A stretch of 64,000 nt of DNA, from the NCBI GenBank assembly GCA_964385615.1, contig CAYLPP010000007.1, forward strand, positions 44,426-108,425, written 5' to 3'. Source of the DNA: an uncultured bacterium (lineage in GTDB: Bacteria > Omnitrophota > Omnitrophia > Omnitrophales > Aquincolibacteriaceae). A program made the translations under genes and the position numbers. Shown here one piece after another: positions 1,519-64,000 of the stretch (the stretch's first letter is position 1; every line of letters begins with the position of its first letter). The notes beneath the pieces were generated by a model. That model worked only from the letters and a program-made list of their open reading frames with translations. It was not told the origin of the DNA and did no database searches.

Positions 1519-1525
1519 ATTCACC

Positions 1526-19749: not shown

Positions 19750-22700
19750 TTAGGCGGAAATCTTGGCTTTTTGCTCAGCCAGAGCGGTCATAAGGGCTTT
19801 GACGATATTGTTTTTCAGGAACAGGTCATCCGCGTCATAACCTTCGGAAGTCATCCGAACCTCAACGAATTTTTCAAACTGCTCACGGCCTAAGACCGCC
19901 GCTAACAGACCCACCTCACCCAGTTTTTCTGTGTTGGAAACTGGGCGGTTTTCAGGCGTCTGGATTTCAGCTTTCCCGTAAACAAAGACCGTCGCCCCGC
20001 GGGAAGCCAGGAATTCCGTCAGACTCTGAGCTTTAGAATCTCCGGCGCGGATATAGAAAACCAGATGGCCGGCGGCTTTGCCAACCTGACGATGCAGAAG
20101 GTCAAAGGTTTGCGTTTCAAAATTTTCCAGATTCTCGATTGACTGAATGCCCGGAGCGTTCTGGAAATCCTTCGAAGCTTCAGAACCCAGAGCCACGCGG
20201 CGGAACTGGCCGACCATCGTGCGAATCTCAAGCAACGCCGAGCCGGACTGGAATCCCTCAAGAATATCGATGGATTTCAGTTTCAAGAATCGGGCAACGT
20301 CATACGGCTTACCGACGGTTCCGACAAGCTGTTGGGCAAGCTCGCGTTCGTTAACCGCCGTGAATTGCAGGAGCATACGGCCGATAGCAATCCGATCCGC
20401 GTAAGTTTTATTCACATCATGGGCATCGAGAATTTCCTGGATGCGGACGGTTTCTTCCCAGGCTTCCGTTTCGTTGCTCAGGCGGAGGCTGTCTTTCAGC
20501 CGGCCTTTCTCGTTCTGTTCAATATGAATACGTTCATGCCCCACGGTCACGATCAGATCGTTGAGCATACGGGCGAAGTACACAAGCTCTTCAGGCTGGA
20601 CATCTTCAATCGCCGGGCTGAATCCCGCGGCAAAGCCGTTGAGAAGTTTCTGTTTGTTAACCACGATGCTTCCGGTCTGCGGATCCGCGTAACCGAAATG
20701 ATTCTGCAGCGCGGCGTCAGAGGCCTCATCTCCCAAGAGCAAGGCGCCTTTTTCTTTGTAGGCCGCAAGCATATCGTAGTTCTGAAGAAGCCCGAACGCC
20801 TGAGCCCGGCGGGTCGCGGCCTGGAGCATCACTTCAATCGAGTTACCGCCTGAGCGCCATGACAGAACGCTTTCGGCCAGAATTCTCAAGCTTTCATCCG
20901 TTTCAAGACTGAAATCAGGAATGGCTTTCAGTTTCGCGATCAGGGATTTCAATTCAGCGCTCTCAACTCTTGATTCAGAACGCGCGGAAACTTCCACGGC
21001 CGGTTCTTCGGCGGTATTACGCGCGAATTCCGCGTCACGCTCAATGCGTTCAATCATCGCGCGGAGGTCTTCAACCGAAATACTGCGGGCGGAAAGTCCG
21101 GCTTCGAGCTGCGCCGTGAATGAATCCTGAACAGGGCTGTCAAGAGCCGCGACAACCTGATTCAGGAAAGCCAGCGCGGTCGCGATGTTTTTGAAGTCTT
21201 CTTTGGTTTTCGCTCCGGCAATTTCCCAACGGCGGGTCGCGTCCAGAATCTTTTTGACGAACTGATAGAAAATCCAGACCTTATCGACCACGTCGGAGTC
21301 CACTTCCTTCACTTTCGGAGCCAGATCCGCGAGCGGGCCCATATCCCGCAGGATTTTGCATTGAACCAGGAAGCATGAGCTGCAAGAATTCAGCAGGCCT
21401 TTGAAAACTTTATTATTGAGCTGAATGCCCGACTGATTCAGAGCATCCAGAAGTTCGGCACGGCCTTCGTTATAATCGGCTCCTTTGACCACGCCCTGAC
21501 CTTGACCATCTTCCACGAACAGCGTGCTGAGAACCTGCTCAAGTTCACTCCGGCGAGGAGGCGTCGTGGAGCGGATCAGGCGGGCAAGCCCGCTGACGTA
21601 ATTGCGTTTCACATCGCTGGAATCGCCGGCGGACGGCACTTCAGGAATCCGGATTTCAGAGCGAGCGGAACCATCTTCGCCCTGCTGAGCGCGGGCTTCC
21701 ATCATTTTCCGCAATTCCTTAAACTGATTAGCCTCCTCTTCAGCGGGATTCGCCGGAGGTTTCGGGCTCGTCAGCGCTTTGCGAAGTTCTTTCTCCGGAA
21801 GGTTACTCTTCGCGCTCTTCTTCATGAGATTCTGCGCGGCGGATTCCGGAGCGTATTCAAGAATGGTATAGGTGTCATCACTTTCGTTATAAAGAACAAC
21901 CTGCATACGCACCTTACCGCCCAAACGGTCGTAGTAAGGTCCAAGCACCTGGCCCAGCTGTTCCGGGAACGACTTATACGGATCAATTTCCGTGTGCGCG
22001 AACGCGAGAATTTCCGCTTCGTCCGGTGTGATCGGCGCGGCCGGATTTCCCGCCGCGTCAAATTTCACGGGATTTCCATCCGCGTCCAGGAAACGGACCA
22101 TCTGAGCATTGCGCTTCACATCCGCGGAAGCTCCGGCGGGAAGGCCCAGGGCTTCAAAATCACGGGCTTTCACGACCGACGCGCGGGTCACAGAACCATT
22201 TTCCGCCACCGTATAAGCCACGGCTCCCTGCCCGGCTTTCCAGGAAACCGCCGGCATACCGTCGGTGAACGACGACGGCGTAGGATCATTTTCAGGGTGG
22301 AAATGCAAACCCCGGTAAGTGTTGGAACCGACAAACTCAACACGGTCTTTGGTCGAACCCTGGAAGGAAATGAAAATCTTGCCTCCCTTTTTAATCTGAG
22401 TAATGGCCGTTTCATAACCGACAACCTGCAGGCGTTTAAGAAGCTTCTGGCCTTTCTCAGATTTAAGAAGCTCATCAAAAGCATATCCGGCCGTGACATC
22501 AGCGGCCAGATCAATACCCGTTTCCGCCAAGTCCAGTTCAAGGAAAACTTTTCCGTCTTTACGCGCCTGATCCAGGAATTCCGCCGTCACGTCATCAACC
22601 TTCACGGAAGTTTTTCCGTACCGTCCGTTAGCCTTAAGTTTAGCCAGAATGTACTCGCTTCCGGCGCGGTAACCGGCCGGCATCTCCAAATTCTCGCCGT

Positions 22701-25700
22701 CATCCACACGCTCAAGGAAGGCGGCTAATACCGAGGCCCGCTGAAGGTACATATCGGTTGAAAGAAGTTCCGTGAGACCGTCCAAATCTTTTTGGGCTTT
22801 TGCCTTCACGTCAGTATCCGCAGAACTTAAATCATTTCCAGCCAGTTCCATCAAACGGCGGACCAGATCCTTAATCAAGCGTTCACCCGCGTAGAAGTCC
22901 TTAGAGAACGCCGTGGATTCCGTCATGGGATAAGCCATCTGCAGACGTTCCAGGTAACGTTTAAGCGCGTCAGGATTCCCGCGGAATTTTTCAACATTCA
23001 GCTGCGCCCAGTCAAAGCGCGCTTCGCCATCAGCATCTTTCTTTTCTTCCTCGATTTCCAATTTCCGCTGAATAGTCAAATCATTACGCGCGCCGAATTT
23101 AGCCTTAAGCTGATCCTGAGCGGCTTTCTTTTCAGCTTCGACTCTGGCTTTCTCTTCGTCAGATCCGGTAAAAAGCGGTTTTGCGAGAGTCTGCAGAAGA
23201 CCTTCCAGTTCCACTCGCTCATCCGCGGTCAGTTTCGCTTCATCAAAACCATATTGGAGCGAAGCGCCAAGCACGAGCGAGCGGATATTCAACGCCGTTA
23301 TTTCAGCCTGCAGGGCGTCAATGGCCGGCATAATCTGTTCATTGATTTCCTTCGCCTTCTCAGCGCGCGCTTCGCGGTTCTTTTGAATCAGTCCAGGCGC
23401 GACCACGGAAGGATCATCCGTTTCCGGTCCGTTTAATTCGATCCTTCTCAGTAAAATCGCCGCCGTGAGATCTTCACGGTTCATCGTTACCATCTTTTGA
23501 AGGCGGGCAATTTCAGCATTCAGCTTGGCGAGCATTACCGGGTCTTTTATTGCCCCAACTTGCGCAGTCAACTGTGTCAAATAAGCGCTAATGGCGCCTT
23601 TGATTGTATCCACAATTTCCGGCCGGTTGATGGTACTAAGCGCCGTGGCAACATTGTTCAGCCACTCCAATTCACCTTTTAACTGTTCATGTTCCGCGTC
23701 CAGGTCTTCAGCAGAAGCCGCCGCTTCTCTCAAACGCGTCCGAAGAGGCTTCATCTTATCTTTTAGCTCTTTTTCTTTCGCGGTGATAGTTTCGGGACGG
23801 CCTTCCACAATAGCTTTCCCTTTCAAAGCGGTCTGCATTCTCTTGAAAACTTCAGCGCGCTTTTTAGCAATGCTGAGTGTTTCATCATTTTGAGCGATCT
23901 GGCTCTTAATCAATTTCGCGCGGTTCGCTTTTTGAGCCGCAGTCAACTCCAGGTTAGAATCAAGATTTCTTAACGCTGCCTCCAACTGCTGTTTGCGCTT
24001 TTGCAGCCGGTCAATCGTTCCCGCGCTGGAAGCCCCGTGAGTCTGGAACACAGACGCGCCCAGGAACCGCATCGCGCGGTAAACAACCGCGTGGGCGTAA
24101 GCCGCGGGATTTGTTTTGCGCAATTCTTCAAGCTCGTCTTTAACGTCTTCCGGCAGGAAGTTCACTAAAGTTCCCGCGATCTGATCAAACGGAGCCAGCA
24201 GTTCCTGCGTGCGGGCTTCAGAACGGGCGGAAGGGCTCATAGCCTCAAGCTCATCCAGGCCGTCAAGCGCGGATTCAAGCGCGTCAGCAATCTGATCGGC
24301 CATCTTGTCACCGTCATTCTTGCCGGTTTGAGTACGGTTAAGAACCGCCCGTCCGGCGCCGTTCAAAACTCTCTCTTCAAGGGTCACGCGGTTTCCAAGA
24401 AGTTCATCTTCCGTATCCGTCCAGGAAGTAAACTGCCACAGAACGCCCATCATGTAATTTTCCACGTAGTTCAGAACATTTTCCTGAGCTTGAGCGACTT
24501 CGTCCAAGGTCGGCCGGGTATGAGCGACTTCCAGGAGATCCAGAAGTTCCGCGGCGGCTCCGTCAGAAAGAGCCGGTTCATCCTTGGGCTTCCCGGTCTT
24601 TTCATCCAGATTTTCTTTCTGCTTGTTCTTGACCACATTGCGCGCGGCTTCGATATTGCCGTCTTCAACCGCGCGGAGGAAATCGAAGTACCAGGTAAAC
24701 ACGTTCACCTTCGAGAAATAATCATTCAGGATATGAAGCACATCTCCCATCAAGCGGAACCGCTGTTTCTGAAGGACCATAATTTCATTCAGCAGGTTTT
24801 TCTTCTCCGCTTCCGTCATCTCTTCTCCTTCAGCCAGCTTCCGATAAACTTCGATCCTGGCCCGCAGATCCGCCAGTTTATCCTGGGCTTTGGCCGCATC
24901 GGAAGGCGTCAGGAGACCGGAATCGATACCACGCTGAACGTTTTCAGCTTCCGCCGTCAGGTCGAGCTGTTTCTGCCTCATGTCGGCTTTATCTTCATCC
25001 GTGAGCTTGCCTTTGGCCGCGCGGCGAAGCACTCCGAGGCGGGCATTATTTTCCTCGAGAGCGGCACGGTTCTGGAGCCATTTCTGAACCGGGTTTTCAC
25101 GGACAATATCCATGTTGGCCGTATTGCGGTAGAACCGGATCTTTTCGCGGAAGGTTTCACCCAGCTGAACCGCGCCCCAGCGGTAACCTTCGAACGTCGC
25201 CTGAAGCTCGCTGTCATTAAGAGTCTGCATATACGCTGAAGCCACGAACTCAGCAAAGAAGTCACGGAAAATCTGGCCCTGGTAATCCGAACCCTTCGCG
25301 CCTTCCCCGTTACGGCTTCCGCCCAGATCGTTCCAATTCATGATCTGTTCCAGACGTTCCGCTTCAGCCTTCAATTTTTCAATTTTTTCTTTATCCTTAA
25401 CCGGGTCAAGCCCGTTGATTTCCTGACGGATTTTCTGGACCATGGTCTGAGTGAATTCCTTGTCATGATCGTCAATAATACTTTCCGTCGCTTCGTGCAG
25501 GAAGAACTGGCGGATCACGGCCTTGGCGGATTCGGCCGGATTGGTCCACTTGCCCGACCGGCGCAGGTGGTTCATCGTAACGAACAGGCTCTTGCTGAAG
25601 AACATCTTCTGTTTGCCCTCATTCCAGTACGCGTGCGTGTCGGCTTCCGGATCAATTCCAAATTCCATTTCACCGATGCGGCGGCCGATCTTGGCCATAA

Positions 25701-28700
25701 TGTCCGCCGGATAACCCGCGTCTTTCATCTCCTGCGGAAGATTTTCATAGCTGAGTTTGTCCACGATATCCGAGCGGACTTCCTCAATTGTTTCAGTGCT
25801 GACGCCAAGCCCGTACACAAATTCCATATCCGCGATGAACCGGCCCAGGCTGGGAGCGGCTTCAAAAGCCTTATCAAGATACCGATTCGCGGCTTCAAGC
25901 GCGTTCGCGTTCGCGCGGCGGACGCTTTCAGCCGTCAGATCCGCCTGAAGAATCCAGAATTCTTTGCCATTTTCATCGATCGCCGGCAGGCTTCCGTCAC
26001 CCCATGAGGTCGACGAATCTTGAATCATGATCGCCAGAGTTTCATCATCCATCCCGGCCAGATGCGCGTCAACCTTGGGCGAGGAAAACGAGGGAACCGG
26101 TCTACGGCTATTGAGCGCGTCCATAGCCTTATGAATGAAGACACGGCCTAAGGCGAGTTTCAGCGAGCGGACAAGGTCCGCTTTATCTTCCGAATGAGCC
26201 CGAACTCCCATCGCTTTTCTAATCAGGACGTCATAGGCGTCTTCCGGGTTATCCTGCATCCCGTCAATACCTTCCGTTTTCATGAACTGATAAAGCTCAG
26301 CGGCGTTGTTTAAACCATAAATAGGCATCAATCCCCCAAAGTTGATCAGGAGACGGGCCTGCGTAAAATCAATATCCGTTGTCCGGCCGAATTGACCGGC
26401 GAAGAACACCAGCATCTGTTCATTGATCCACGGGAATTCCTCAGCAAGTTTCGCGAGCTCCAGATCCGAAACCGTTCTGAAAGAACCGTCCGGATTGCGG
26501 AGCTTATCACGCAGATACGACGCGGCTTTACCGGCCGTTTTCATCTGTTCCAGATTCATGCCCGCGAAAGTCTCGGCGGGAATCTGCGACAGCATCGGTT
26601 CATCCGGAATTCCCGGATCCAGCATTTTGGCGATTTCGAGTTCCTTACCCGTAAAGCCGTGATCCGCGGCCAGCTTTTGAAGATTCCGTCCGGTCAGCTC
26701 ACCCAATTTCAAGCCGTCGGTCAATTTTTCAGTTTCACGCGCCAAAGCGTAATATCTCTTCAGCTTATCTCCAAGATCAGCACCGAAGAATTCAACAAAA
26801 AGACCATCCATAAAACCTTCGCCGACGCGGTCGAGATCTTCCTTCAGCTTTTTGGCTTTTGCCTGAATTTCAGCTTTCTTTTTCGGATTCTGATTCTCAG
26901 GCTTCTTGAACTCTTCATTGAGATCCGCGATGTCTTTCTTGTATTTTTCATAGGCATCCGTGCGCATTTTGACAAAGGCCGCGCCATCCGCTTTTTCGGT
27001 GAAGCCGGCAAGCTTGATCAGCATCTCATCGCTCATACCCGGAATCGCGGCCTGGAGCGCGCCGAGAACCTTCGCAAGGGCTTTATCCCCGCGGCCCGCG
27101 TTGGTCTTGGCCAACTGAGCCACACGGGCTTCAAGAGCCGCGCGGAGAAGGCTATTCGGAACAAACCCGCGGAAGAACGTATTCTGCTGGAGACCGATCA
27201 GCCAGCGTCCGACCGTAGCCGGCGTTTGAGCCAGACGAACCTTTTCACGAAGCTTTTCAAGCTCCGCTTTCTTAGCCGGAAGTTCCGGGCTCTTCTGCTT
27301 TTCAAGATCCGCGACTTCTTTCTGGAGATCTTCCGTGCGCAGTGCGTCAATCTTCGCCCGGAGTTCTTTAGCCGCCGGCGTATCTTCCTGTTTCTTTTCA
27401 ACAAACTCTGTCTGATAACGTTCACTCAGATGCTTCTGATGCTCCTTATAATCGTAAGCACCATCACTGTTGATCAGTTTCTTCAAACCGAAAATACCCA
27501 CCCCGATAGCGAGACCTAATAGGGCCCAGCCGGAGAGAACCCCCGCGAATGCCAACCCAATTCCAAGAACCGGCAGAGCCACGGCGGCCGCGAAACCTAA
27601 TTTCCGATTCACGGACCAAAGCTTTTCAATTCCCAGCCCGATTACCGCCCCAAGCGCGCCATAGGTCATTCCGACAAAAGTCATGGTAATCATACCGGCG
27701 ATACTAAAAACAGACGTCTTCTGGAAGAAGGCCTTGGTTGTCTCCCAGGTGCTCGCGCTCTTTTTAAGCGGTTTCGCGTGTTCATCTCCGAGCACGAAGC
27801 GCAGGAGTTTCGCGGCACCCGTAATGAGGCCCCAGCCGGTCGGAAGATTGATAATCATCATCGCTATTTTCTGGGTTAAGGGAACTCTTCCGACGGCAGC
27901 GTTATAAGCCTTCCAAACCAAGTTTTTGTCAGCAGGTTTCAATTCATCAATAATCACCGGCTGCTGAAGTTTTTTGAGTTCTTCGGCGGTTTTGAAGAGC
28001 TCTTCAACCGTCATGCGGCTGAAAACTCTTTCACCGAGCCCCTGGCGAATCACCTGCAGACTGTCCATCATTTTCTGAATCTGCTGAAGACCGGCCTGCG
28101 GGTGGAAGGCCATCAGACGTTCCACAAAAACCTGCCGGTGAACTTCGTTAGTGAACGGATCAAAAGCAGGATTGTCAGCCCTGAAAGTATCCAAAATATT
28201 CTCAACGGAATCCGCGCGGCGCGCGACGAAAAGGTTCAGCACCGTTCCAATAACCGGCATGGCGTAAATCGCTCCGCCGCGGATCTTCTCAACCATCGCG
28301 GGAATTCCCTGAGTGACCATCGGCATCCAGCGGGACCGGGCAACCACCGCCGCGACCACACCCACCGCCGGAAGCGCGACTAAAAGAGCCGCGGTGAAAC
28401 TAACCGCGACGACCGCGGCCGCAACCGCCGCTGCAGCGGCGGAAAGCCCCACAATAGCACCCGCAATGGTCCAGCCGTCAGTCTGCGTCATCGGTTTGGT
28501 TTCATCAAAAGTGCCCCAGGCAAACGCGTGGAACTGATATTTCAGATAGGAATAACTGGTCACGCGCACCCAAAGTGCGTTGAAGGTCTGCTTGAAATTA
28601 GTCAGATTCTGCCAGACCCCCTGCATGAAACCTGAGAATCCCCGGCCAAGCACGGGATATTTGAAGAAGCCTTTCTTGAATTCAAGGACTTCATTCTTGT

Positions 28701-31700
28701 GCAATTCCATCTCATTGAGCTGGCGGGCACGGGCAGACTGCACTTTGGCCATCTCGCGCTGAGCCGCCGCGTCCTTCCAATGTTTCTGGAAGGTTGTAGT
28801 CACGCTGTTGTAAAAAACGCGATCCCGATGATCATCTGAAAGCAGGTAAGCCCGATTCTGGCGGGCGAAATAAGCGCCCAAGTCAGCCTGGAAGCTGTTG
28901 GAATTCAGGAGCAATGAAAGATCCGTCTGATCAAACCGGGGAGGAAGCCCGATAGAAGTCTGAGTTCCCTGGAAGCTCTGCGCGCGGGACAGCAGGCCGT
29001 TCATCGCGCTCACGGCCGGTGAAGCCAAACCATAACGGCCGGCCGCCGAACAGGACTCGCAGCCTTTTCCATAAAGGGCTTCCACCGCGCGGCGGAGCCG
29101 GTAGCTCATCTGCTGAGACTGTCCGACAGCTTTCATCACTTCGGCCGCTCTGCGGGAATTGGCGGCATGCGTTTCCGCGGTTTCAGTGCCGAGGCGCTGA
29201 TCGCGCTGAGCCGCCGCGAGGTTATAGCTGAGCACGTTAAGCACCGCGTTGTAAGCGGACTGTTCATCCGTGATCGTAAATCCGGTCAGCTGAGTTGAAG
29301 GCGGAAGTCTTCTTCCCCCGCCGAGTGCAACCTGAATATCTTCCATATCTCTTCTCTGATCAAAACCACGGCTCATCTGGGTCACTTCGCCGATCGAAAG
29401 AAGACGCTGAGCAAGATCTCCGGCGCCGTCACCGTCAAAATGGCCTTGTCTTTCAAGATGCAGGGCCGCGGCGATGACCGCTTTACGGATATCATCCTGA
29501 GTCGAAGACGCCGCGTTCACGTTAAAGGCGGAATTGCCGGTAGCCTCATAAAGGGCCTGCAGACCGCTCATCAGATTGGCGGAATAAATGCTTCCTGAAA
29601 GCATGGCCGTAACGAAGCGGTACATGTTGTAGCCCTTCTGGGTCGCGTAGCGGTCGCCGATCACGCCGATCCGCTTGAGCTGGCCCACAAAACCTTCCGC
29701 CTGGGCGCCCAGATTGGAGCTATTGCTCAAATCATCCGCGATCTTTTCAGGATTATTCAAAAGGTTAGCCAGACTCGCGCTGCTCTGCTCTCTCTTTTCC
29801 GTGGAGAGACGGCGGGTTTCACGCGTCGTCAAAATATATTCGCCAAACAGAACCGCCGTCTGCACAAACTGAATCAACAGAGGATTGCGGGTCTGATTGC
29901 CGGAAGTGCGGGCATAAGAGAACGCGCCGTCTTCATAGCCTTCGGATTTCTTGATATTTTCAAGACGGAAAAGACCGTTTCCGGATTCCAGCGCGGATTC
30001 AACGCTAAACACTTCTTCCGCGTTGAACGCTTCAAAAATATCCGCTTTTGAAATCCCCGCCTGCTCCAGTTTGGCCTGCAGAGTCAAAGTGGTCGTACGG
30101 CTTCCGTCGCCCATCTTACTTCCAAAAATCTCATTGATGATATTGCGCACTTCACCGCGGACGAATTCATCCCCCGTCACGCCCTTCTTTCCGCGGGTGA
30201 TTTCGGTATCATTAATTTTGCCTTCTTCCATGTCCGCGATAATTTTGCGGAGCGCGTCAGCCTTGGGCCCATTCTTGGCGTTCTTCTCAAGCAATTTCAC
30301 CAGATTCTTGGTAATCATTTCGTCACGCAGAAGCGTGGTCACGGCAAAGCGCGCGGCATTGGACTGCAGGCTGGCTTCCCGGAATTCAAAGTTCAAAGTC
30401 ATGAGGTCGAGAAGGTTCGGCGCGTTATCCGTCAGGATGGTTTCCTTGCCGGCGATCGCCGTTTCATAGATCTGATTGAATTCTTCGTCAAATCCCTTAT
30501 TGCGGTCCGCTTTGAACAGACGCTCAACCAATTTAATCATATTCTTGATATCCACAACCCGCTGACGGTACAGACTCACGATATTCTGCTGTTCGGGAAC
30601 CGTGGACTGGCCATAAATCTTTTCCGCGGTCGCGGCCTGCGCTTCCGCGTCTTCAAGACGGCGTTCCAGGGTCGTTTTAAAGCTGTCATAGCCGACATCT
30701 CCCGCGGCTTCGCGCAGGCTTTCACGAAGTTTTACCTTATCGGCAAAGAGACGGATCTGACCGCTGTTACTACGGTCACGGCCGAGGGTCTGAGCGATCA
30801 GGCTGGATTCAAACAATGAAATTCCGATACCGATGACATGAGTCGCCACGTCTATTTTTCCGCCGTCCGCGGTATTATCCAGTACGTTCAAACGTTTCAA
30901 GTCGAAGGCTTGGGCGATACGCCGGCTTCCAATCACGATCTGACGTTTACCGCTTCCTGACTTAGCAATCGTGGTGACTTCTTCCGCGCTGCTTCCCAGC
31001 TGGACTTTATTCAGATTAAAGGTTTCGCTCTGACCAGCTTCATCCAAAGCCAATTCTTCGCGAACCGCGCGCTCCACTAATTCCTGCTGTTTCACGCTGT
31101 CCGTGATGAAAACAAAGTTACCGTCACCCTTTTCTCCGCGCAGGATTTCACGAACCGCTTTGCGCATGGTCGTCACAAAGCTTCTTTCACCCGCCGCCGT
31201 TGAGGTATCCATCAGCGTATCGACCTGGAGACGGCCCTTGGAGCGCAGGTAGCGCAAATCCGCCTGACTCTGACCTAACTCAACACGCTCATTGCCGGTG
31301 AAAAGCTTGATGAAATCAGGAAGGGTCGCGGAAACCGCCACAACCCCCTGCATAAACATACGCTGAATCGGAGACCCAATCTTGGTTTCAAGACGTCCGA
31401 TCGTGTCCAGATCGTACCAGGTACGGATTTTGGCCATATCCAGAGAGTTCATCTCCATTTTGCCTTCCGCGGTGAACTTGACACCTTCCATCAGGGTGCC
31501 CGCGTCCACCTGAACACCATCCACGTCCGAGGGTTTGTTGCTCCGATGCGTCCGGCCTTTTTCAGATTCATAGAAGCGGAGCTTGGCAGCCAGATCCGCG
31601 TTGTCACCCACCCGGCGGCCGCCCTTTTCGCCGACCATACGGCGCAAGAAGCTGAAGGTAAAAGCGATTTGAAGCGCGATATCTCCGGACTGCTGATCTT

Positions 31701-49700: not shown

Positions 49701-52700
49701 CCGTCAGGCTTACGCGAAGTTCACCGTCAAGCATCAGGAATTCAGAAGGCGAAGCGTCTTTACCGGAGGTTTTAACGTACACGCGCCGGCTTTCAGTCGT
49801 CACCGTGCTTGCCGCTTTGGGATCACGCTTTTTATTCAGCGCGTCAATTTCAGCCTTTGTCATATCCCGGCCGGCGATGACATTTCCAGTATTGGAATCA
49901 CGGACTTCATCCAGACGTTCACCTGAAGAAATAACGCTGGTTACCAGGAAGCTGGCGGATCCGGCGGCCCGGGACCAGACACGGTCACGTTCATAGTCCG
50001 CGGCGAAGCTGATAAGGAGGCTTGACCCCTGGACATTCGAGCTCCCCCAAAGATCACGGTAATTGCCCGTTCCCAGCAGGACGACGCGATTCTCAAGATC
50101 AAGAGCCAGGAACTGGGAACGTCCACCCGACAGAGGGGTACGGGAGTAAAAATTCTCAGCGGCAATTTCATTATCTTTCCCGGTGCCCAGCTTGATTTTT
50201 CCCGCAGTCGGAGATCTTTGAGGCTTGATTTCATCGCCCGTTTGACCGTCAAAAACACCCACAAACGCGTTGGCCGAAATTTTCTGCCCCAGCATGAAGC
50301 CTTCTCCAGCGTTGGACCACCGCATATCAACCGCGGCATTGTAGTTGGCAACCAGACTCAGCTGGCGGAGCAGAGGTTCTTTAAAGTTTCCGTTACCGGC
50401 CAGGACCAGACGGTTTTCCGCGTCAAACGCGATAAATTCCATCTTGTGGCCTTCAGGAGAAAGCCGGGTGTAAACAGCCACGCTCTCCGTTTTCATCTGG
50501 CCAATCTTGATATTTTTCGCGGCGTCAGTTGTATCCGCTTTGAGTTCAGCCCCGGAATGAGCGTCATAAACGCCGAATTTCTCGCCCGTCGCGGTACTGC
50601 TCATCCGCATAAACCCGCGGCTGACCAGTGTCAGCTGGCGCTCAAGCGTATAGTTCGCGGCAAAAGTTAATTCAAACATGGCGGAGCTCGGATGGAGGAA
50701 ATCACCGCGCCCGGCGAGAACAATGCGGTCTTCCCCGTCAAGGGCCACAAAGTTGGTCTGCTTTGAATCAGGATGCTCGATCACATAAAACTTCTTGGAT
50801 TCCGTTTGAAAATCGCCGACCTTCATATTATTGACACCGCCGGCGTGCGCCGCGACTTCCTTACCGGTATAAGGATTAAAAACACCTTTAAACGCGCCGG
50901 TGTCCATATGAGTTGAATAAAGCGCGCCGTTACGGTTCACCCATATCTGACGAACCGCCGGGTCATAATTCGCGGCATACATAATCTGGAGGACGGTGCC
51001 CTTACGGCCGTTCTTGCTCATATCGCCCAGAACATAAAGAGACTCACGGCCTTCAGAATCAAAGAAAACGTTTTCCAGTTTCCCTTCACGGTTCTTAACG
51101 GTCCAGCCTGATTTTGACTGAGTCTTCACGCCTTCAATATTGGCGTAAGCGGTCACGTCAGCATCCGTCAGTTTCTTTCCGGTGATTCCCTTCTGGTTCA
51201 ATACGGCAACCAGTGTATTGTCGGAAAGTTTGCGCACAATCAGGGCTTCACCCGTGCGGCTGGCGGTCCAGCTTCGGTCCTGCTCAAAATTAACCGCGTG
51301 CATAATCGTAATGTCAGCAGGATGGCTGATAATATCGCCGGAAGCGACCAGCGTAATCCGGCCTTGGTCGTCATACAGATAGCTTTCACTCGGTCCGTCA
51401 TGAGAGCTGACCACGGCCGCGTGAGTCGCGTTGACGGTAACCGCCCCGCGGTTATAACCGCGGATATCCTGAACTTTGATACGGACATTTTTGGAGGGAC
51501 TGACAAACCCAAGCAGGTCGCCGGTAAAAATACTGCGTTTAATCAGCGCTTCTCCGCCCTCACGCTGATAAATAAAGCCGTTCGCGCTATCCATCGCGTA
51601 GAAGACCTTCTCCATTTTCCCGGAGCTGGTGACCGCGCAAAGTTTCAGGTTGGCGTCAAAATGAACCACAACCTCACCTTCTATTTTTCCGTCCACAAGC
51701 GTTTTGACTTTCCGGCTGTAAACAGACTTAATCGTATCCGTTCCCTGATTGCTGTTAAATTTAATGGCCTGATTGTTCGCGGCCAATGCTTCGAGATCGC
51801 CGGCACCGTCCCAGAAGCCGATCAAATCACCGCCCATGGTCATAACCGGGAAATGGCCGTCCACAATTTGACCGCCGCCTTGGACAAGAACACCAAAAAC
51901 CACATTGTTCTTGCGGTCAATAATGTTGGAGTAATACTTCAGGGTCGGACCCATTTTTTCTTTGGATGAAGTCGTGACATGCTGGCCGTCATCCGTCAGG
52001 TGGATAATCCGGGGACCATCCGGCATTTCGAGCTGAATGTAGGCGCTGGTGCTGACTCCGGTTGACTCATGCACCGTGGGAACAGCTGAAATTGAAACAC
52101 CGGTCTTAACACCCTTCGAACTGATACTTCCAAGCATACGCCCGGTGTCCATGCTGGAATAAGCCGCCGGTCCTTTCAAATCTTTGAAAGAAACCCCCTG
52201 CAGGGTCGTGTGAATAATCGTCCGGTCTCTGAAATTAAAAATATCCAATGAATAAGCTTTCGCGGGATCGGACATATTTCTGGCCGTCGCGACACGGCAG
52301 CCGAATGAGCAGTCCAGGAAAACGGTGTGGTTCTGTCCTCCGTCGGTCTGAACCCCTTCAAGAATCGCGTCCGTTTTGACGCCGCCGAAATGCGTGGCAG
52401 AAAACGTGGTGACGCTCTGAAGACCTTCAAAAGCATTCCATTTCCCAATGATGACACCGCGTTCCGTATCCTCAACCAGGACATTGTTCGAAACCCCGCC
52501 GAACATGGTCATCATGTAACGGCGATGATTGGTATGATCCATCAGATCAATCACGTGGTGAAGAACCGGCTGACCGTCCTTGCGGACCTGCCCCGTATTA
52601 AAGGTGCCGCCGACCAAACGGCCCATGCTATCAAGATAAATCGTGATCGGTTTTCCCGCGCCTTCCTTGCCGATAACGCCCTCAATGACCATCGCGCTTG

Positions 52701-55700
52701 AGAACGCGCTTCCGGTTCCCGAAAGCCACTGCACCTGTTTAACCTTGGCGGCAACAATCTTACTGCCGTCCCACGAACCGAGAATACGCTGTGTCCGGAT
52801 ATCCATCACCGGAACATTGGCTTCCAAACCGCCGGCCAGTGTCACCATGTAGCTGATGCCCTTCGTGTGATCCGTAATATCCGTGATGAATTGAACGTTT
52901 TTAGTGCCGTCGGCTTTAAACTGGAATTTTTCTCCAAAAACCAGTTCCGCTCCGACAAAACGGCTCATGGAATCAAAATGCATGGTCACCGCTCCGCGGT
53001 TGCGGTCAACAACCTGCAGTTCTCCGGCAGCAGCCACGGAAATATCGTTCATCTTCACGGTGTGAAGGGTTTTCTGGATCGCCACCATCTTCCCGTTCTG
53101 CATCACTCCAAGCATATTTCCGGAAGCGATTGAACGGATAAAATAAGAGCCCGCCGCAAGACTGACTCCTTCCGACTGGGTGTGGAAAGACATCATCCGC
53201 GCGTGATCAAAAATAGTGGAGTCCCGGCCAATATGGGTGCTGACCAGCGGGTGATTGCTTCCCATATTCAGGTAGATCGCGACTTCCTTGCCCCCTTCAG
53301 GACCGGAACCGACGCTGGTGCCGGAAAGAACCGTATTATAGGAAAGAGTGGATCCTCCGTCCGGAGTCGTTTCGGTACCGGTTCCGCTCATGAACTGGAA
53401 ATTTTCACCGATCCGGATATCAAAAATGTGCGTGAATCCAGCCGTCAGCATTTGGGTGCCGTTCATCTTCGTCACGTCAGTATTTTGACGGGCATGGCCC
53501 ACGGCGGCAGCGTAACTGTTAACCGTTAATTCCAAACCTTCGGAGTCGGTAAATTTAAAAACCGGCGGACGGCCTTGCCCATAAATCGCCGTGGCTTTCG
53601 ACGTAATGGGGATTTCGGTCATCTTCCCGTTAAGCATTCCCTTTATCGAACCTTGATAGTAAACACGCTCCACGGTTTTCGTTTTGGTTTTTTCATTGTA
53701 AGAAATAAAGCTCGTGCTCTTGTCTCTGTGAGTGATCGCGACACGCAAAACTTTTCCGGCGGCATTCAAATACACCACACGGTTACGGCGGTTTGTATCC
53801 ACACGAACGACCGTCGGAGAGAGGTTGTGCTCAACGGAAAGCGTCTGATAGTTCACATTCGCGAGACTGACTGTCGTACGCCGGCTGAAATACTGGGTAT
53901 ACATGGAAGTGGAGATATAAACGCCGGTACCGACGATACCTTCCGTTGACAGGCTGACAACCCCCCACTTATCAAAGAAGGTCCAGGAAACACGTACGGC
54001 CGATTCCGGGAAAAGCTGCCCTATCTGACCGACGACACCGCCGAAAGCAAACCCTTTAACATCAAGCTTCGGATTCGCGGGAAGCTTCAGCCCCGTACTC
54101 AATGTGCCTAACCCGATAATTTTTCCAACCAATTTCATCAGAGTGGTGGAGATAAGACCAAAGTTCACACCGCCCATCAACGCGTTATAAAGCTTGGAAA
54201 CAATTGTTCCGGTTCCGGGCCCTCCGCCGGTAAGCGGATTCATGTTTTTTGAAGCCAGGTACTGCTGGACACCATAAATCAGCTGAACGGCGGAATGCTT
54301 TCCTCCGGTAGTCAGATCCGCGAAAAATCCGCGCATCAGCCCTGTCAGCGCGGCCGCGTCATTAATGGTCAGAGAATCCTGGCCCATGAACATCACCGCG
54401 CCGATCACGGAGGCCGAAATCGCTTCGCTGTTTCCGGTTTTGAAAATATCAAGCAGAGGCGCGAACAATTCAGGACGGCTTTCAACCTGCTTGCCAAAAG
54501 CCTCGACACGGTTAATAAGAACCCCGAAATCGAGCTGGGAGAATTTAAAAATCTGAACCCGGACATTGTGCGGAGTCGCGAAGAAATTACGGATAAAATT
54601 AACCGTCGTGGCTGAGACTGTCGGATTCAGGCTGTTGAGTTTCGGTGAAGATCCGGCGAGATCTACAGCTTCCAGAAACAGCTGTCTTACATCATTAAGA
54701 TTCAGATCCAGGCCTTCGGCCAGAGTCTTGGGAAGGTTCGGGTTTTTCTGGATCAGGATCGGATAAATGAAAGCGATCGTCGCTCCGCGCAAACGCTGGG
54801 TCGCCGCCGCGTCCAAACCGCCCGACTTAGTCGCTACTTCTAAAAGCGAGCCGAGAATCGCGGCCTGATCCGCTGAGGTCAATTTGTCAAATTTATCAGG
54901 ATTTTCAAAAATAGCGTTAATAACATTCGTCGCGAGCTCGGCATTGCCCACCAGATTCAGATTTTTGAGTATCTGAGGCGCGACCGCGAACCGGTCTTCC
55001 ACACCCAGCGCGAGAAACGCGTTCTTCGCTTCCCGAGAAAGCGAGCGGACAGCAGCCGCGACAACAAAAGCCGGTAAAGTGGGGTCATTCGCCTTCACTT
55101 TTCCAAGGAATTCAAGCAATTGCCCCGCCTGCTGAACCGCGACCTTGTTATCCCCCGCTTTGACCAGGTCTTCAACGACCGTCACACCTTTGCTTACGAG
55201 GTCTCTGCGCACATCCTGAGTCAGATTCGGAAGCTGAAGGTAGGCCGTAATCAAGTTCCCGTGCGTTTCAAGCGTGAGACCCGCCGGACGGACGGGCGCC
55301 AGCACGATATCCGTAATAATTTTGTGAAGTTTTTCAGTCTGAGCCGCGGCTCCGCCTCCCGCGCGCAGAACAAGAATCGCCGTCGCGGCTTTATCTCCGA
55401 GATCCGTAATACTGTCCACTGCCGCGGTCAGTTTTTCAATGATGGCTCTTTTAGCAACCGGATCGGTGAACTTCAAAAGCGCCAAACCGTTTTGCACAAA
55501 GGTTCTTCTTTCACCGTCATTGGCGAACGCGGGAGGATTAAGAATCTGCGCGGAAAGGAACTGAACCGCTTCAATACGCTGAGCGCCCGTAAGGAGATAA
55601 ACGGCGTCAATATTCTGGAAAAGTTCAGGAATCGTCAGCGTGCCTTCCCCCTTGAAAACAATCGCCAACCGGGCGGTCAGGGCCTGCTGCTGATCCTCGT

Positions 55701-58700
55701 TAAGATTCCGGACCAGCAATCGGGCGTTTTGAGCGATCGCTTTATCCACAAATCCAGTCTCGATCGCTTGTACAACCCGGTTCCCGATAAATTCCGTAAG
55801 ATCTTTGTCAATCGTTCCTCCGCCCGCGTTGAAAAACGCGATCGCGGCGTCAACCCGAAGCTGGGCTGTGGCGGCTTCAGGATTGGGTCCGCCGATCACA
55901 ATCAGGTTTGAAAACGCTTCTTTAATATCCGCGACCACGGCCGCCTTTAAATCGAGCAGATTAAAACGATTCGCGTAACGGGCGACCTGAGCTCCAATTT
56001 GAAAGTCCGTAGGCGTCACATTTCCCGTCGACAGGACTTTTGCCTGAACCAGCTTGCTAATTAAATTCCGGACAAAATCAGTATCATTTTTAGTATTTAA
56101 ACCTCCCAGCCCGACCGTAACGGCCACTTGAAGCTGGGTTTTCTTATCCAGGAAAGTCGAAAGGCCCTGATCCGCCGCCTTAAGGATATTGACAAGCAGG
56201 TTGTTGGCCTGTTTCTTGAGGTCTGAGTTGGTAAACGGACTTTGAACTTTTTGCGCCAGCAGAACCGTCAACGCCGCGCGCTGCTGGTCAAGCGTTCCGC
56301 CCGCTTCAAAAATCTTCTGAATATCTTTGTTATTTTCCGCCGCTTTCTTGATCAGATCCTGAAGTTCAGCCGCGGTAGGAGCTTTGATGCCCAAAGCTTT
56401 CAAAAGAGCCTGAATCGCGGGGTTGGCCGCGAAATCCCCCATGTTCAGCAGAGCGACCAATTCCAGCAGCTGCTTGGTTTCTTTATTGTGTTTCTCTTTC
56501 TCAATCGCGGCCTTGCGGGCTTCTTCCAGTTTCTTTTTATCTACCGGCTTGGCGTCCCGGCGCTTGATGCCGGATTTGTTCAGAGCCGCTTCTTCAGCCG
56601 CTTTCTTATCCGCCAACGCTTTCTGCTCGCGCTGAACTTCTTCAAACGTCCTGACCGTCCAGCGGGGCTTCTTGCCCATCATTTCATAAACCTGTTCCTG
56701 GCCGTAACGGGCGACATCAAAGAGAATCGACATCAGGTAAATCACGATCGCGGAATTACTTTCACCGGACGCCGGATCCACACTGCCAAGCTTGACTTTC
56801 AGCTGGGCCAGTTTAGTTTGATAACGCTGTTTCGCGTCTTTTAGACGGGTATCCCGGATATTGACCAGGTTGTTGGGGTCGTCAGGCGCCGGGCCTTCTT
56901 CCGGAGTAGGCGAAGCATTCGGGTTATTTTTGTCGTAATCGGTGTCAAGCGGGAACGAGTCCTTGTCTTCAGCCCAGCCGTCAGCCAATTCTTCAAGATC
57001 ATCACTAAGCGCTTCAGACAGATCGTGAACCCCTTCATGATAGGTGCGCCAAATGACATGCCAGTGTCCTTCGATCCAAACTTGACCTTCCGCGTCCCAG
57101 TGCCCATACATGTATTCAAAGTAAGCATTGTAATCGTCATTGCGCTGAGTGCAGGAACCGTCCAGAGGCTCATAGCACCCGCCTGAACCAATGAGAATAT
57201 ATTTTCCAAGAAGGGTGCTTTCATCCGCCCAGGCATCGGTACGGGCCGTGTGGTATATCTCAAGAATGTCATAGTAGAACTGAACTTTCGCGTCTACATA
57301 GGCGTTGGTATAGGTTTCCATCCGGCTGCGCAATTCTTTCGCGTTGAAGAGCGCGTTTTCGTAAATCCCAATGCGCATATCAAACTCAGCCGCGTGTTCA
57401 AAAAACATCCGGGACATCCGGGCCATGAATTCAGGAACATTGAAAGAAAGCATCGCGATATTGGCGAAAAACATCCGCTGAGCCTGAATATACCAACGGC
57501 CGGCAACTTTGGAAGCCGTGCGGAGCTTTTTATAAACATAGAGATCTTCACGGATATTGCCGATCCCGGGAACCGTGATCGACATAAAGTCGTCAAACAT
57601 GGCCTGCGCGCCGTTCGCGGTTGTACCGCCGAGAATATCGTCACGGATGTGCTTGTACTTCTCCATCCGGTCTTCATCAATCTTGTCGAGCATCTCGTAG
57701 AAGCCGTCACCGCCGTTCAAACTGGTGTTGAGGGCTTCAAAAACAGCGCTCACATGATCTCTGAAAAAGGTGATCTGGGATTCATAATAATCTTCGCGCC
57801 GAAGGTCAGTATCATCTTCAAGCTTGTGCGCAAGATCCGCTTCTTTCTTGGTGTGATAGTTCTCACGAGTCGGACGCGGACCAATCAGCGAGAAGCCGTT
57901 TGGCCAGACCCCAGCCCAAACCGAATGCCAGTTCAGCGTAATGCTGTGATTTTCACCCTGATCAACCACAACCCCATCCCTGGTATGAACCCAGCTGGTT
58001 CTCCAGGCATTTCCAATTTCCGCATTCCACCACTCATTGGTCCAGGTTTCAACATGGTGCGCGCCAGGATGATAAATAAATTGTCCGCCCGCGCCACCTT
58101 CCACGACCACAGGCCCCTCTGGTCCCGGCGGCATGGGGCCAGGATTGTCCGGAACCCATTCCCAGGTACCTTCTTCATCCCATTCGTTAGTCCAAGTATC
58201 CGTGTTATAAGTCGCAGCAGCACTGGGAATCGCGTCAATTTGCTGCTGATAAGAGTTATCGATCTGCTCATTAAGATTCTGTTCAATGTCATCAATATCT
58301 TCGGTAATCTTGGCTTTCATCAATTCATAATCACTGCCCTCGCCGACCTTACGTTCGTCTCCTTCCCAAAAAATCAGTTTAGAAACGTAGTCGTCACGGA
58401 TTGCTTTGAGTTCCATAATCAGATCATCTTTAATCCCGGGAATCACATTCTGGAAAAGATCATCAACCTCACTCACAATATCATCGTGATAACCCTGGAA
58501 ATTGCTTTCCGGGCCAAACTCAGCTCCCTCCCACGCCGCGCGGGAGGCATTGATAGCGTTATTGGCATCATTTTCGGCGTTCATAATATCCGTCGAAAAT
58601 TTGTTGTAAGCGTTGTTGATCCGTTCCCAATAACTATTCTGAAGCTCTAAATTGGTTTGATAGTCTTCCTGCTCCTGCTTGTAACGGTCCCATTCTTTTC

Positions 58701-61700
58701 CCCGGTCTGAAGAATAGGTCTTGGCAAGATCATGCGTGCTAAGAAGGTAGTCTTTGCGGGCTTTCACCAAATTGAAACGCTCTTCCGCGCCCAGATAATC
58801 GAGATTATTCGAGCCATTCGAGGCCATGCCGTCAACCCCTCGCTGCTCCGGCTGAATCACCGCGTATTCAGGAGGAACTCCCAGATACGGAGGGGTCATT
58901 CCCGCTTCACCATAACAGCCAGGTTCGTAGTAGGTGTAGCACCCGTAACCGCCGTAGGTGTTGTACCAATATCTCCAAGGCATCCAGGGAACTTCTCCGG
59001 GGCCGGGATTATTGTGTTCATAGGGGTAGTAGCCATAACCGTAAACATCAAACGGGTTATAGTAATAATAGTAGTTGTAACAGTAATAACCGCAATAACC
59101 GTAGTTGTAATACGGATCAGAAACACTGGCCGGCGTAATCTGGAAAACACCTTTGGCTCCGCCCCGGATATTCAAAATGTTTTTCATTTTGGTGGAAGCG
59201 GCATCCGTTGCGGTTTTCAGCTGTTTCTCGAGGTCAATTTTATTCGCGGCAAACGCCTGCGCTTTACGCTGAATCACGGAAGTCCAGACACCGTAGCAGC
59301 CGAATTCGTTCTGAGGACAATCCGTAGTGCCCGGGTCAAGAAGAGTCGCCATCAAATCGTCAAGTTCAGCCCGGTAATCATAAAGCCCATAGCTTTCAAT
59401 TCCGTCCGCGTTCACGTACCCGCCGCCGTCCATCATATTTTCAAACTCAGTCATTTGAGCTTCCATGAAATCGCCGATCCAAACTCCATAGGTGCCGTAA
59501 AAATCATCGTAGGGGCCGTAGATTTGCTTAATCCCTTTAAGATTGTGAGCTCCGATGGCGGCGGCAATATCAGCCTCCGCGGTAACATCCCCGTCGGTCG
59601 TGTCAAAAAGCATCGCCTGAATCGCGGCCCAGCGTTTGACCCGCTTTTCATAGTTGGCGTCAAGACCGCTTTCTTCCTGAACATTGACGCCGTATTCAAT
59701 CGTATTATTTTGAAGGTCGGTCAAAAGAGCCGATTGATACGTATAGAGTTTTTGTTTATCAAAACCAGCCTTAAGATCAGCGTGATTGCAGGCATAACCG
59801 CTGTTAGCCAGGCACGCGTTGAAAAGGATATACAACGCGCTGTTCCCGCCGAACAACCACCACCAATTTTGATAGCCGTCCGGGATCGCACGGTCATTTG
59901 TGTTTATAATTTTTACGGCCGCGTCAAGAATCTTGCGGGAGTAATCGATGCTGTTTTGATATTTACGGTCAATGACCGTCAACTTCAAAGCGATCAGACT
60001 GAAGCCGTGGGTGTAGTAAGCCTGGACTTCCTTCTCAATATCTTCCTGGTATTCATCATATTGAGTTCCCAAGGCGTCGATATAATCCTGGTGAATCTTT
60101 TCCAGGGTTTTGGTCACTTCCGCCGTATAGTTCCCCATGGTCGCCAGAGGAAGCGATAATCTCTTGTCCAGCAAGGTCGTCTGCGTTGCCACAGTATCCG
60201 CATAGACACTGTCATTTCGATTGATCCGGTCGGCTGAAAAGATATCATTCATCGCGGCCCCGAGACTGCTAAAACGGATCGCCATGTCCCATTCCTGCAC
60301 GTACACATACCCGCCGGCCGTCATGACAAGACCTTCCGCATTTTTCTGGTAATCGCAAATCTGGGCGGGGCCGCAGTTTCTATTGAACGGAGCTACGTTA
60401 AAAATCGGCTTATCAACATAATTAAGGAAAATATTACCGACAGATGATTTATAGTCGGAGAACGCAAAATCAAACCGGAACCAGAAATCATCGCTGGAGG
60501 ATTCCATATCAGACCGGTAATTAGGCATAAAACCGTCGATATCCCCCTTCAGCGCGGTCTCTGCCGCGGTCGCTGACGCGTTGTAAGCCGCTTCCGCCGC
60601 GACATAGTCGTTCCAGACGCCATCCATCCGGGCGAGAACATCATCCGGCGTATCCCCGACAGCCGGATCCGCGGGCGGATATTTCACGGTCGCGTCATAG
60701 TCCAGCGCTTCTGAGAAAACAAATTTCGCTTTTCCGATCCTGGAGTCAAAATCTGCGAAAGCAATCGTCTGAGACGCGAGATAAATCCGCCGCTCAACGC
60801 TCTTGTCTGTTTTGAGCGGGAAAGAGTGGTTTCTGTAAAAGTCATAATCGGAACGCGATCCCCGGTCATTGGCAATGATCGCCATCTGAGCGGCATACCC
60901 CTGGGTCATCGTCGCGGTATTCAGTTCAGCCGCGATTTTAGCGTAGTCGGTAATATGAGAAATCAGAGTCTTGAGATTTTTCTCCATCCGGTTGAAATAA
61001 TTGGCCGTGGATTCTTTTTTAACTTGACCGGCATTGTCAGGGTCCCAGTAGGCGACAACATTTCCACCTTGAATTTTAGGCTTGGGAATCTGCATGCTCT
61101 GCTGATTGATGTAAACCGCCGCGCCGTTGACTGATGTGAATTCCGGCACCAGCTTGTCCTTATCGACATATTCATAAAGTTTTGATTTAAGCTGCTGTCC
61201 AAGCGCGTTATTCTCGTCACCCTTACCGTAAGCCTCAAAAAGCTCTTCGAGCTTATCCTTCACGCTCAAAGCGCCGAAGGCGTTCGGCTTCGAAATATCA
61301 ACGTCCTTGTTGTACTGATCAACCGCGTCTTTAACGTCCTGCTTGTAGGTTGTATACGCCTGATCTTCGGCATTACCCGCGTTCAGAGCATTTTTATACT
61401 TGTCAGCCGCGGCTTTGACCGCGTTCACTAAGGTCGTCTTCGCCTGATTGATGGTGTTCGTATAAGCCGTCAGAACCGGATTCAAAGCGGCTAGAAGCGC
61501 GGCTTCAGAAATGCCCAGCTGATTGGTCAGGTTGGTGTAATTCGCATTGTCAGGCCAATAACCGCCGTTAAAGAGCGCGTCATCCACTTTATCCGCAGCC
61601 ATGTTCATAAAAGTCTTGTATCCGGTCAGCAGCTTGGGGCGAAGAGACAAACCCGGGGTTTCGTATTTATCCGTACCCGCGTCATCCCAGGTGAAATCAG

Positions 61701-64000: not shown

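Follow-up and report, generated by a model that had tools for sequence, protein, structure and literature searches.

The stretch of DNA considered here, a window of 64,000 nucleotides (nt) from an uncultured bacterium (contig CAYLPP010000007.1 of assembly GCA_964385615.1, positions 44,426 to 108,425), raises the question of whether a reading frame that stays open over 44 kb of its minus strand is a single gene and, if so, what the resulting protein might do. We conclude that the frame is one real, continuous gene, and that it constitutes the 3' part of the gene of a giant membrane protein. On balance this is probably a giant membrane protein of the Omnitrophota in which an N-terminal part serving in contact is carried on a conserved module that handles polypeptides at the expense of ATP.

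The open frame

The gene occupies the following part of the window:

19750..63999, minus strand: giant open reading frame (ORF), 14,749 C-terminal codons and a stop codon, recognised from the stop-free frame and codon usage

Over positions 19753-63999 of the minus strand 14,749 consecutive codons pass without a stop, and the frame, which closes at a stop codon at 19750-19752 (minus strand), remains open where the window ends; the ORF listing counts 14,745 residues because it begins at the first in-frame GTG. Since the gene lies on the minus strand, the visible part is the C-terminal portion of the protein and the missing N-terminus lies beyond position 64000. Residues of the giant are numbered here such that residue i falls at window position 63999-3(i-1).

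The probability of such a stop-free frame, on an independent and identically distributed model of the sequence, is about 1e-302. The second-longest stop-free run in the whole window extends over 7,974 nt, and the other five frames of the same stretch carry between 174 and 1,114 stops, two of the off-frames having 607 and 1,114. Codon usage within the frame resembles that of the neighbouring genes in every tile of 2,000 residues (cosine 0.90-0.94, compared with about 0.70 off-frame), and the relative synonymous codon usage of the giant gene correlates at 0.82 with that of the neighbouring ordinary genes. Apart from chance matches of 30-32 nt and one 33-nt tandem, neither direct nor inverted DNA repeats were found in the window, and there is therefore no sequence feature that would invite a repeat-mediated chimera. 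The first-pass annotation, made from the letters of the window, had described a single frame of more than 44 kb encoding over 14,745 residues and running off the window edge, and the stop-free codons and their native usage bear this out.

Reassignment of a stop codon was considered as an explanation for the length of the frame and was rejected, as all three stop codons are absent in-frame. When metagenome contigs were searched with an exact 40-mer taken from positions 63,921-63,960, none of them matched.

Antisense open frames of up to 487 codons are present on the plus strand inside the giant gene, for example at 57187-58647 and 58711-60156, and one antisense frame has just 174 stops over 44 kb. 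These frames are shadows of the coding frame and could mislead a gene caller.

A conserved module with an ATPase motor

Relatives of the giant were found through its C-terminal portion. An exhaustive HMMER search with residues 10430-11450 against 1.84 billion representatives yielded 12 relatives of 2.8-5.8 thousand amino acids (kaa), the best of them 47% identical, and the three that carry a name are all 'Candidatus Omnitrophota bacterium'. A profile scan of the GTDB species representatives gave 13 loci, the named ones again all Omnitrophota or Omnitrophica, with GWA2_52_8 the closest at 46% identity, and the JGI metagenome contigs contributed one further family locus. The link to the Omnitrophota proposed earlier from the sequence is thus upheld, all named relatives being metagenome-assembled genomes of this phylum. 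In all 14 loci the open frame reaches the 5' end of the retrieved DNA (where either the contig stops or the limit of the 10-kb flank is reached) and several relatives fill their contigs, such that the lengths given for them are lower bounds.

The relatives are colinear with the giant over residues ~7,900-8,340, 10,200-11,540, 12,700-13,200 and 13,680-13,950, and P0001 is so to the last residue. Residues 1-6,900 are matched by no relative, and in P0002, P0003 and P0005 the sequence preceding the transmembrane block differs from that of the giant. An unmatched N-terminal region joined to a colinear C-terminal one indicates that the giant is a lineage-specific region fused to a conserved module of ~7,800 residues. 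Moreover, one relative, P0014 (4,213 residues; ENA ERZ1426847, a 73.8-kb contig), consists of a short beta region, a transmembrane block, the motor and the C-terminal domains, and its start lies 16 nt behind a 19,359-residue gene, such that in this genome the N-terminal giant and the membrane/motor module seem to be two neighbouring ORFs. The frame of another relative, L005, ends shortly after the region that follows the motor. It follows from these arrangements that parts of the family occur both fused and split. The features of the module, in order from its N-terminal end, are:

39940..43224, minus strand: polytopic transmembrane block of about 23 hydrophobic segments, residues 6926-8019 (hydropathy scan)
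38980..39939, minus strand: conserved juxtamembrane region, residues ~8020-8340 (alignment to relatives)
33400..38979, minus strand: charged linker rich in Glu, Ala, Arg and Lys, residues ~8341-10200 (composition), partly conserved with P0001 and L003
30700..32607, minus strand: SF2 (superfamily 2) ATPase motor, putatively SecA-like, residues 10465-11100 (alignment, AlphaFold2 and Foldseek)
29380..30699, minus strand: conserved helical region after the motor, residues 11101-11540 (colinear high-scoring segment pairs in all long homologues)
28342..28458, minus strand: transmembrane hairpin 1, residues 11848-11886 (hydropathy scan)
27472..27591, minus strand: transmembrane hairpin 2, residues 12137-12176 (hydropathy scan)
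25000..25902, minus strand: family hallmark domain, residues 12700-13000, with invariants DPxAD, H12835-E-x-x-E12839 and GQIFRDFFAE
22150..22965, minus strand: domain with a JAMM-like motif, residues 13679-13950 (motif level, alignment A5)
19753..20862, minus strand: C-terminal domain, residues 14380-14749, with an HExxH motif, H14488-H14492 (alignment A2)

The motor carries a motif I that reads SAGTGIGKS (Walker A, K10499), a motif II that reads VDEAQ (D10622/E10623), a motif III with SAT at ~10891 and a motif VI, GRDRSNSG, that includes the arginines R11074/R11076. An insertion of ~265 residues separates motifs II and III and falls in the same place as the preprotein cross-linking domain of SecA. 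Across the 10 sequences of alignment A1 (30-51% identity) the invariants are DxSAxTGxGK, DExQ, [ST]AT and QxxGRDRSxxG, and the invariant columns of the alignment are K35, D158, E159, Q161, R610 and R612. As far as can be judged from sequence, this invariance of the Walker A lysine, of DE-x-Q and of both arginines argues for a functional ATPase.

An AlphaFold2 model built from the family alignment (predicted local distance difference test score, pLDDT, 73.5) shows alternating beta and alpha elements. Compared with the PDB by Foldseek, it matches SecA or SecA2 best, with E 6e-10 to 1e-6 and probability 1.00, and these proteins take seven of the ten top places; matches include the SecA structures 2ibm (6e-10), 3jv2, 3iqy, 4ys0, 3jux and 5eul and the SecA2 structures 6t4h and 4uaq. 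Among the 97 PDB matches at E<=1e-3 the best 50 are all SecA or SF2-type helicases or translocases, and the alignments of the motor to SecA cover ~650 columns. The SF2 two-RecA fold is thereby established for the predicted model, whereas 'SecA-like' is the best reading of it, one that follows the Foldseek ranking and a match that is not exclusive. The SF2-like NTPase recognised in the first-pass annotation accordingly finds its counterpart at the level of the fold, with SecA as the most similar protein.

SecA itself is a soluble protein of ~900 residues that docks on SecYEG. The motor of the giant shares with SecA and SecA2 the two-RecA SF2 fold, the invariant Walker A lysine, DE(x)Q, the arginine fingers and the large insertion after motif II, but it differs from them in having no sequence-profile similarity and in being set between transmembrane segments in a chain of at least 14.7 kaa. 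A second Walker-A-like match, at residue 13790, was rejected; it lacks a conserved context, and about two such matches are expected by chance on a residue-frequency estimate.

The transmembrane block spans ~1,100 residues, or ~1,380 with the conserved juxtamembrane part, and relatives conserve its C-terminal end. The juxtamembrane region is 27-35% identical to those of P0002-P0004, L003, L007, L010 and L011. Depending on the threshold, hydropathy alone gives 14 to 28 segments, and the charge bias of the loops is flat. A second transmembrane cluster, at residues 11848-12176, comprises four hydrophobic segments in the hydropathy scan, and beyond the hairpins lie ~2,570 residues of mostly helical sequence.

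Within this last part the hallmark domain tentatively has a zincin-like fold, for which the scores are weak and the Foldseek matches non-significant, and neither its profile nor that of the C-terminal domain matched any PDB sequence. Comparison with the minigluzincins (selecase, jannalysin and abylysin), M13, M48 and Wss1 shows that the second zinc ligand of the hallmark domain would be a glutamate (HExxE), and there is no sequence-family match. In the C-terminal domain the glutamate and second histidine of HExxH are invariant, as is a glutamate ~18 residues further downstream, while the first histidine is lost in two of 10 members. The protein ends in an alanine throughout the family, and in most members in -SA. 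A JAMM/MPN-like motif, RVEFxG...HF[HR]PxxxPxPSSxTD at residues ~13885-13913, is conserved in five family members, but its second histidine is an arginine in one of them, its spacing exceeds that of the classical form by one residue, and JAB models gave no match to the domain.

The N-terminal region and a model for the whole protein

The lineage-specific region that precedes the transmembrane block contains the following features:

63097..63282, minus strand: PDZ domain, residues 240-301 (Pfam, borderline)
62779..62811, minus strand: poly-Gly tract, residues 397-407 (read from the sequence)
58900..59118, minus strand: low-complexity tract rich in Tyr, Gly and Pro, residues ~1628-1700 (read from the sequence)
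54100..56802, minus strand: Ala/Leu-rich and presumably helical region, residues ~2400-3300 (composition and sequence)
52390..53214, minus strand: beta-repeat family 1, residues 3596-3870, period ~112 residues, 29% identity (self-BLAST)
47320..51192, minus strand: beta-repeat family 2, residues 4270-5560 (self-BLAST)
43300..47319, minus strand: non-repetitive beta-rich region with YD-like hairpin motifs, residues 5561-6900 (sequence)

Checked tile by tile with hidden Markov models, as the first-pass annotation had envisaged, the whole giant yields a borderline PDZ domain and no other Pfam (5,000- and 1,000-residue tiles) or NCBIfam family, and phmmer against the PDB added nothing. In the 1000-residue tile the PDZ domain scores 23.9 bits with PF00595 (cutoff 23.2) and 27.0 with PF17820 (cutoff 27), in the 5000-residue tile both models fall under their cutoffs, and NCBIfam gives weak matches to the PDZ parts of Prc, DegP and RseP. 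That annotation had also set out an order of modules, and most of these are present in that order; the labels 'alpha-solenoid' and 'coiled coil' reflect composition only, and the label YD-like reflects motif enrichment only.

Residues ~3300-6900 are beta-rich and include both repeat families and the YD-like hairpin motifs. Family 2 consists of ~12 divergent tandem units of ~105-115 residues each, with 25-38% identity in self-BLAST, and it shows no DNA-level repeats. A word-indexed search found no relatives of it, but for three regions this search returned nothing ('8000 candidates, none scored') although that collection contains relatives at 47% identity; having missed true homologues, its negatives weigh little, and this includes the result for the N-terminal region. 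The N-terminal-most 600 residues have no relative among the GTDB genomes. The giant repetitive adhesins of other bacteria are secreted or cell-wall-anchored passengers without a polytopic transmembrane block, an ATPase or a large cytoplasmic region. The present protein resembles those of the RTX/LapA type, which act on ice or in biofilms, and the Apilactobacillus 'Giant' (PMC12863079) in having a presumably surface-exposed stretch, several thousand residues long, that consists mostly of diverged tandem beta units and is plausibly adhesive.

We propose that the giant has two parts. The first, N-terminal and of at least 6,900 residues, would lie outside the cytoplasmic membrane and act in contact with, or adhesion to, other cells or surfaces, and the second, of ~7,800 C-terminal residues, would consist of the transmembrane block, charged linker, SecA-like ATPase, two hairpins and metallopeptidase-type domains. 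Because the ATPase has to face the cytoplasm, residues ~8,020-11,847 would be cytoplasmic and, since the two tight hairpins bring the chain back to the same side, the C-terminal 2,570 residues would be cytoplasmic too, with the N-terminal 6,900 or more residues outside if the transmembrane block makes an odd number of passes. An extracytoplasmic role in contact or adhesion is suited by the PDZ domain, the beta repeats, the YD-like hairpins and the low-complexity tracts, and by the cysteines, of which there are 24 in the N-terminal region and seven in the predicted cytoplasmic part. By analogy with SecA, the motor may spend ATP on gripping polypeptide and pushing it at the membrane; candidate substrates would be other copies of the giant, a partner protein of 2,656 residues encoded immediately downstream (see below) or other cargo. 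Polypeptide may then be processed by the peptidase-like domains, possibly at the RSE[VL]R motifs enriched in the linkers.

A number of observations weigh against this explanation. The motor is located C-terminal to the exported region and could give no help in cis during the co-translational export of that region, and any translocation by the motor would have to be post-translational or in trans. The Foldseek TM-scores are just ~0.28, as is expected for a multi-domain model, and the helicases MDA5, DinG, UvrB and XPD rank closely behind SecA. When the motor profile was compared with E. coli SecA by hhalign the probability was 6%, and neither the family profile nor phmmer found a match to the motor among PDB sequences. 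Pfam SecA_DEAD is absent and DEAD matches one of 10 motor members at E 0.26, while PF07517 and PF01043 gave no Pfam or NCBIfam match even at E 0.5 in the 1000-residue tiles and the 10 aligned motor segments. The topology of the giant is not fixed, given that the transmembrane count depends on the threshold and that the N-terminus, with any signal peptide, lies beyond the window. Finally, the continuity of the 44-kb frame derives from a single assembly and from its sequence only. Past an SF2 ATPase with intact catalytic residues, function is something that we infer, and the same applies to the earlier suggestion of a surface-to-cytoplasm machine for adhesion, predation or injection, for which the side of the membrane taken by the N-terminal region is not settled and the transmembrane count ranges over 14-28.

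A different account, which we consider rather unlikely although it deserves to be taken seriously, is that the giant is a polyprotein, in effect an operon in the form of a single ORF, translated as one chain and then proteolysed into separate working proteins by its metallopeptidase-like domains cutting at RSE[VL]R. Taken together, the giant, the downstream ORF and eight homologues contain the motif RSE[VILATS][RK] 24 times, where 0.73 occurrences are expected, and its typical form, A-[AS]-R-S-E-[VL]-R, often lies in Pro/Ala-rich linkers between domains. The giant has up to three peptidase-type motif domains, and relatives hold parts as separate genes (P0014 with its preceding 19,359-residue gene, and L005). 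A similar role was proposed for C39 and S8 peptidase domains by West-Roberts et al. (2023; bioRxiv 10.1101/2023.11.21.568195). In the giant, however, the motif is confined to the part after the transmembrane block (residues 9544, 10448, 13259, 14113 and 14340), and the N-terminal region of 6,900 residues would remain in one piece. Moreover, the zincin assignment is weak and HExxE is possibly catalytically dead, while RSE[VL]R could be a docking or phosphorylation site as readily as a processing site. Such processing is compatible with the contact protein carrying an ATP-driven module that we favour, and the two are not mutually exclusive.

The motor could, on the other hand, be a nucleic-acid helicase or translocase, in which case DNA or RNA would be the substrate of the module, for instance during uptake, injection or defence. 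Foldseek matches MDA5, DinG, UvrB, XPD and RIG-I at E 1e-7 to 1e-5, these helicases also carry domains inserted in RecA1, motif III is SAT as in DEAD-box proteins and, as mentioned, the profile comparison with SecA failed. Such a function is nevertheless improbable, considering that SecA and SecA2 hold most of the top Foldseek places together with the best E-values, that the motor domain has transmembrane segments on either side, that published giants of the Omnitrophota carry a Pfam-recognised SecA_DEAD domain at the same position, and that Pfam and NCBIfam scans of the giant revealed no nucleic-acid-binding domain.

A more far-reaching version of polypeptide handling, to which we give little credence, is that the C-terminal module of ~7,800 residues constitutes a self-contained translocation machine independent of SecYEG, with the transmembrane block as the conduit, the fused motor pushing polypeptide through it and the N-terminal region as an extracellular track or contact device directed towards prey or host. 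Its cargo could be the 2,656-residue partner, copies of the giant or effectors. If true, this would represent a new type of secretion system encoded by a single gene.

It is very improbable that the frame is an artefact in which a chimeric assembly, or consensus errors that erased stops, has merged what are really several ordinary genes. The relatives sometimes carry parts as separate ORFs, and the frame is known from one assembly, both of which would fit such an origin. Sequencing errors, on the contrary, create stops far more often than they erase them, and the complete absence of stops, the uniform codon usage and the lack of repeats for a chimeric join are accompanied by colinearity of the last 7,800 residues with 14 independent loci.

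We set aside as barely plausible a protein of the RHS or polymorphic-toxin type, with the YD-like beta region forming a shell round a toxin domain delivered to neighbour cells, because, although the motif is enriched in this long, beta-rich region (six observed over residues 3301-6900, 0.3 expected), Pfam RHS_repeat and related models give no match in the giant even at E 0.5, nor does NCBIfam, and the region precedes the transmembrane block of ~23 segments and 6,700 more residues rather than an RHS core and toxin tip. Membership in the RHS/YD group, which the YD-like label of the first-pass annotation might suggest, finds no support from the Pfam models. The likeness to RHS/YD-repeat and teneurin shells is limited to the long beta-rich region and its recurrent hairpin motifs of the [FY]xDxxG[RK][LV] type.

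The locus and its place among the giant genes of the Omnitrophota

The genes downstream of the giant, all in the same orientation, include:

11636..19606, minus strand: partner ORF of 2,656 residues, separated from the giant by a 143-nt gap downstream of it
10899-11507, minus strand: regulator with HTH_17 and REC domains (Pfam)
10573-10902, minus strand: Hpt protein (Pfam)
6936-10604, minus strand: hybrid kinase of 1,222 residues, CHASE-PAS-HisKA-HATPase-REC (Pfam)
2878-4581, minus strand: protein with a double sulfotransferase domain (Pfam)
1526-2881, minus strand: beta-barrel porin of the BBP2 type (Pfam)
892-1704, minus strand: Wza-like exporter, Poly_export/SLBB (Pfam)

The 2,656-residue partner has a signal-peptide-like N-terminus, a transmembrane cluster at residues ~1340-1530 and five RSE[VIT]R motifs, and no Pfam domain was found in it. 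Its first ~600 residues (YIQDAHA...EG...TGGFHAEG) share 27-29% identity with the N-terminal ends of P0008 and P0009, two relatives in which this N-domain forms one chain with the same motor and C-terminal domains, and this fusion identifies the ORF as a partner in the same system. The N-domain gave one weak match to Tiki/ChaN (PF04187), at E 0.009 and in one of three members. The C-terminus of the partner shows no similarity to the terminal domain of the family. A match to Sec62, at E 0.005, was judged to be due to chance.

Downstream of the partner lies a complete phosphorelay (6936-11507, minus strand), which might regulate the giant-gene locus. Further downstream, 3' of the kinase, are genes for a MiaB-like radical-SAM enzyme and YjeF_N. 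The envelope cluster at 892-4581 suggests, from its gene content, that a sulfated polysaccharide is exported, and the presence of the BBP2 porin and the Wza-like exporter indicates that the organism is a diderm. In the 19.7 kb downstream of the giant no genes for type II secretion or carbohydrate import were found. Every gene in the window is on the minus strand, and the GC skew is negative throughout, its cumulative value falling monotonically. The window contains no tRNA genes and no Rfam families at gathering score, and a scan for promoters and terminators gave results at chance level.

Giant proteins of the Omnitrophota have been described earlier with transmembrane anchors close to the C-terminus and, after these, divergent SecA_DEAD and preprotein-binding domains in which the scaffold and wing are missing, and it was suggested that they act in adhesion to prey and in digestion of cell walls, with the focus on a class exceeding 30 kaa (West-Roberts et al. 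2023; 10.1101/2023.11.21.568195). The visible length of the present giant, at least 14.7 kaa, is below that class, and its full length runs past the window. A recent survey catalogued 5,761 proteins with lengths of 10 kaa or more, 80% of which were singletons at 30% identity, and found that 24-28% of the Omnitrophota contigs in some samples carry such a protein (Nielsen & Lui 2026; bioRxiv 10.64898/2026.06.07.730766). The very rare size claimed in the first-pass annotation does not, therefore, apply within the Omnitrophota, and size alone would not surprise specialists. In the architecture catalogue of 916 proteins from the same survey (10.64898/2026.06.07.730766), 94% contained transmembrane helices or carried a signal peptide, 15% had no domain match and the architecture cluster with PF07517 (SecA_DEAD) comprised 20 members.

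The present protein resembles the SecA-like giants of the Omnitrophota (the 'Dockerin-type' and 'Archaeovorin') in its lineage, as judged from its relatives, and in the succession of a long N-terminal region free of transmembrane segments, transmembrane anchors and a SecA-like ATPase with intracellular sequence. Further common properties are extreme divergence, few recognisable domains, repeats that have diverged at the DNA level and peptidase-type domains. In contrast to those giants, its SecA_DEAD domain is invisible to Pfam and the motor is seen only by structure prediction, and Pfam detected no dockerin, TSP3, discoidin, glycosyl-hydrolase or glycosyltransferase, methyltransferase, C39 or S8 domains in it; in their place it has zincin-type motifs (HExxE and HExxH), RSE[VL]R in its linkers and the terminal -SA. 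The visible neighbours also differ, consisting here of the 2,656-residue partner, the phosphorelay and the polysaccharide-export cluster, and not of the genes for type II secretion or carbohydrate import that often, although not always, lie near those giants. By architecture and lineage the protein is thus a very divergent addition to the known SecA-like giants of the Omnitrophota and not a new kind of system, and what is added to earlier work is a cryptic motor, a conserved module with named invariant residues, a linker motif and evidence that genes of the family have undergone fusion and fission.

Giant genes fill a sizeable share of the small genomes of the Omnitrophota, a phylum that has received little study, and a function has been demonstrated for none of them. 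The present case illustrates that a giant which is nearly blank to Pfam can still be dissected, into a conserved membrane-plus-cytoplasmic module and N-terminal regions that are unrelated between members. Since its SecA-like motor is hidden from sequence-based hidden Markov models, the frequency of such motors among 'dark' giants has probably been underestimated. The invariant residues and domain boundaries define expressible fragments of 300-1,100 residues, and these would offer a practical way towards a first biochemical handle on such proteins.

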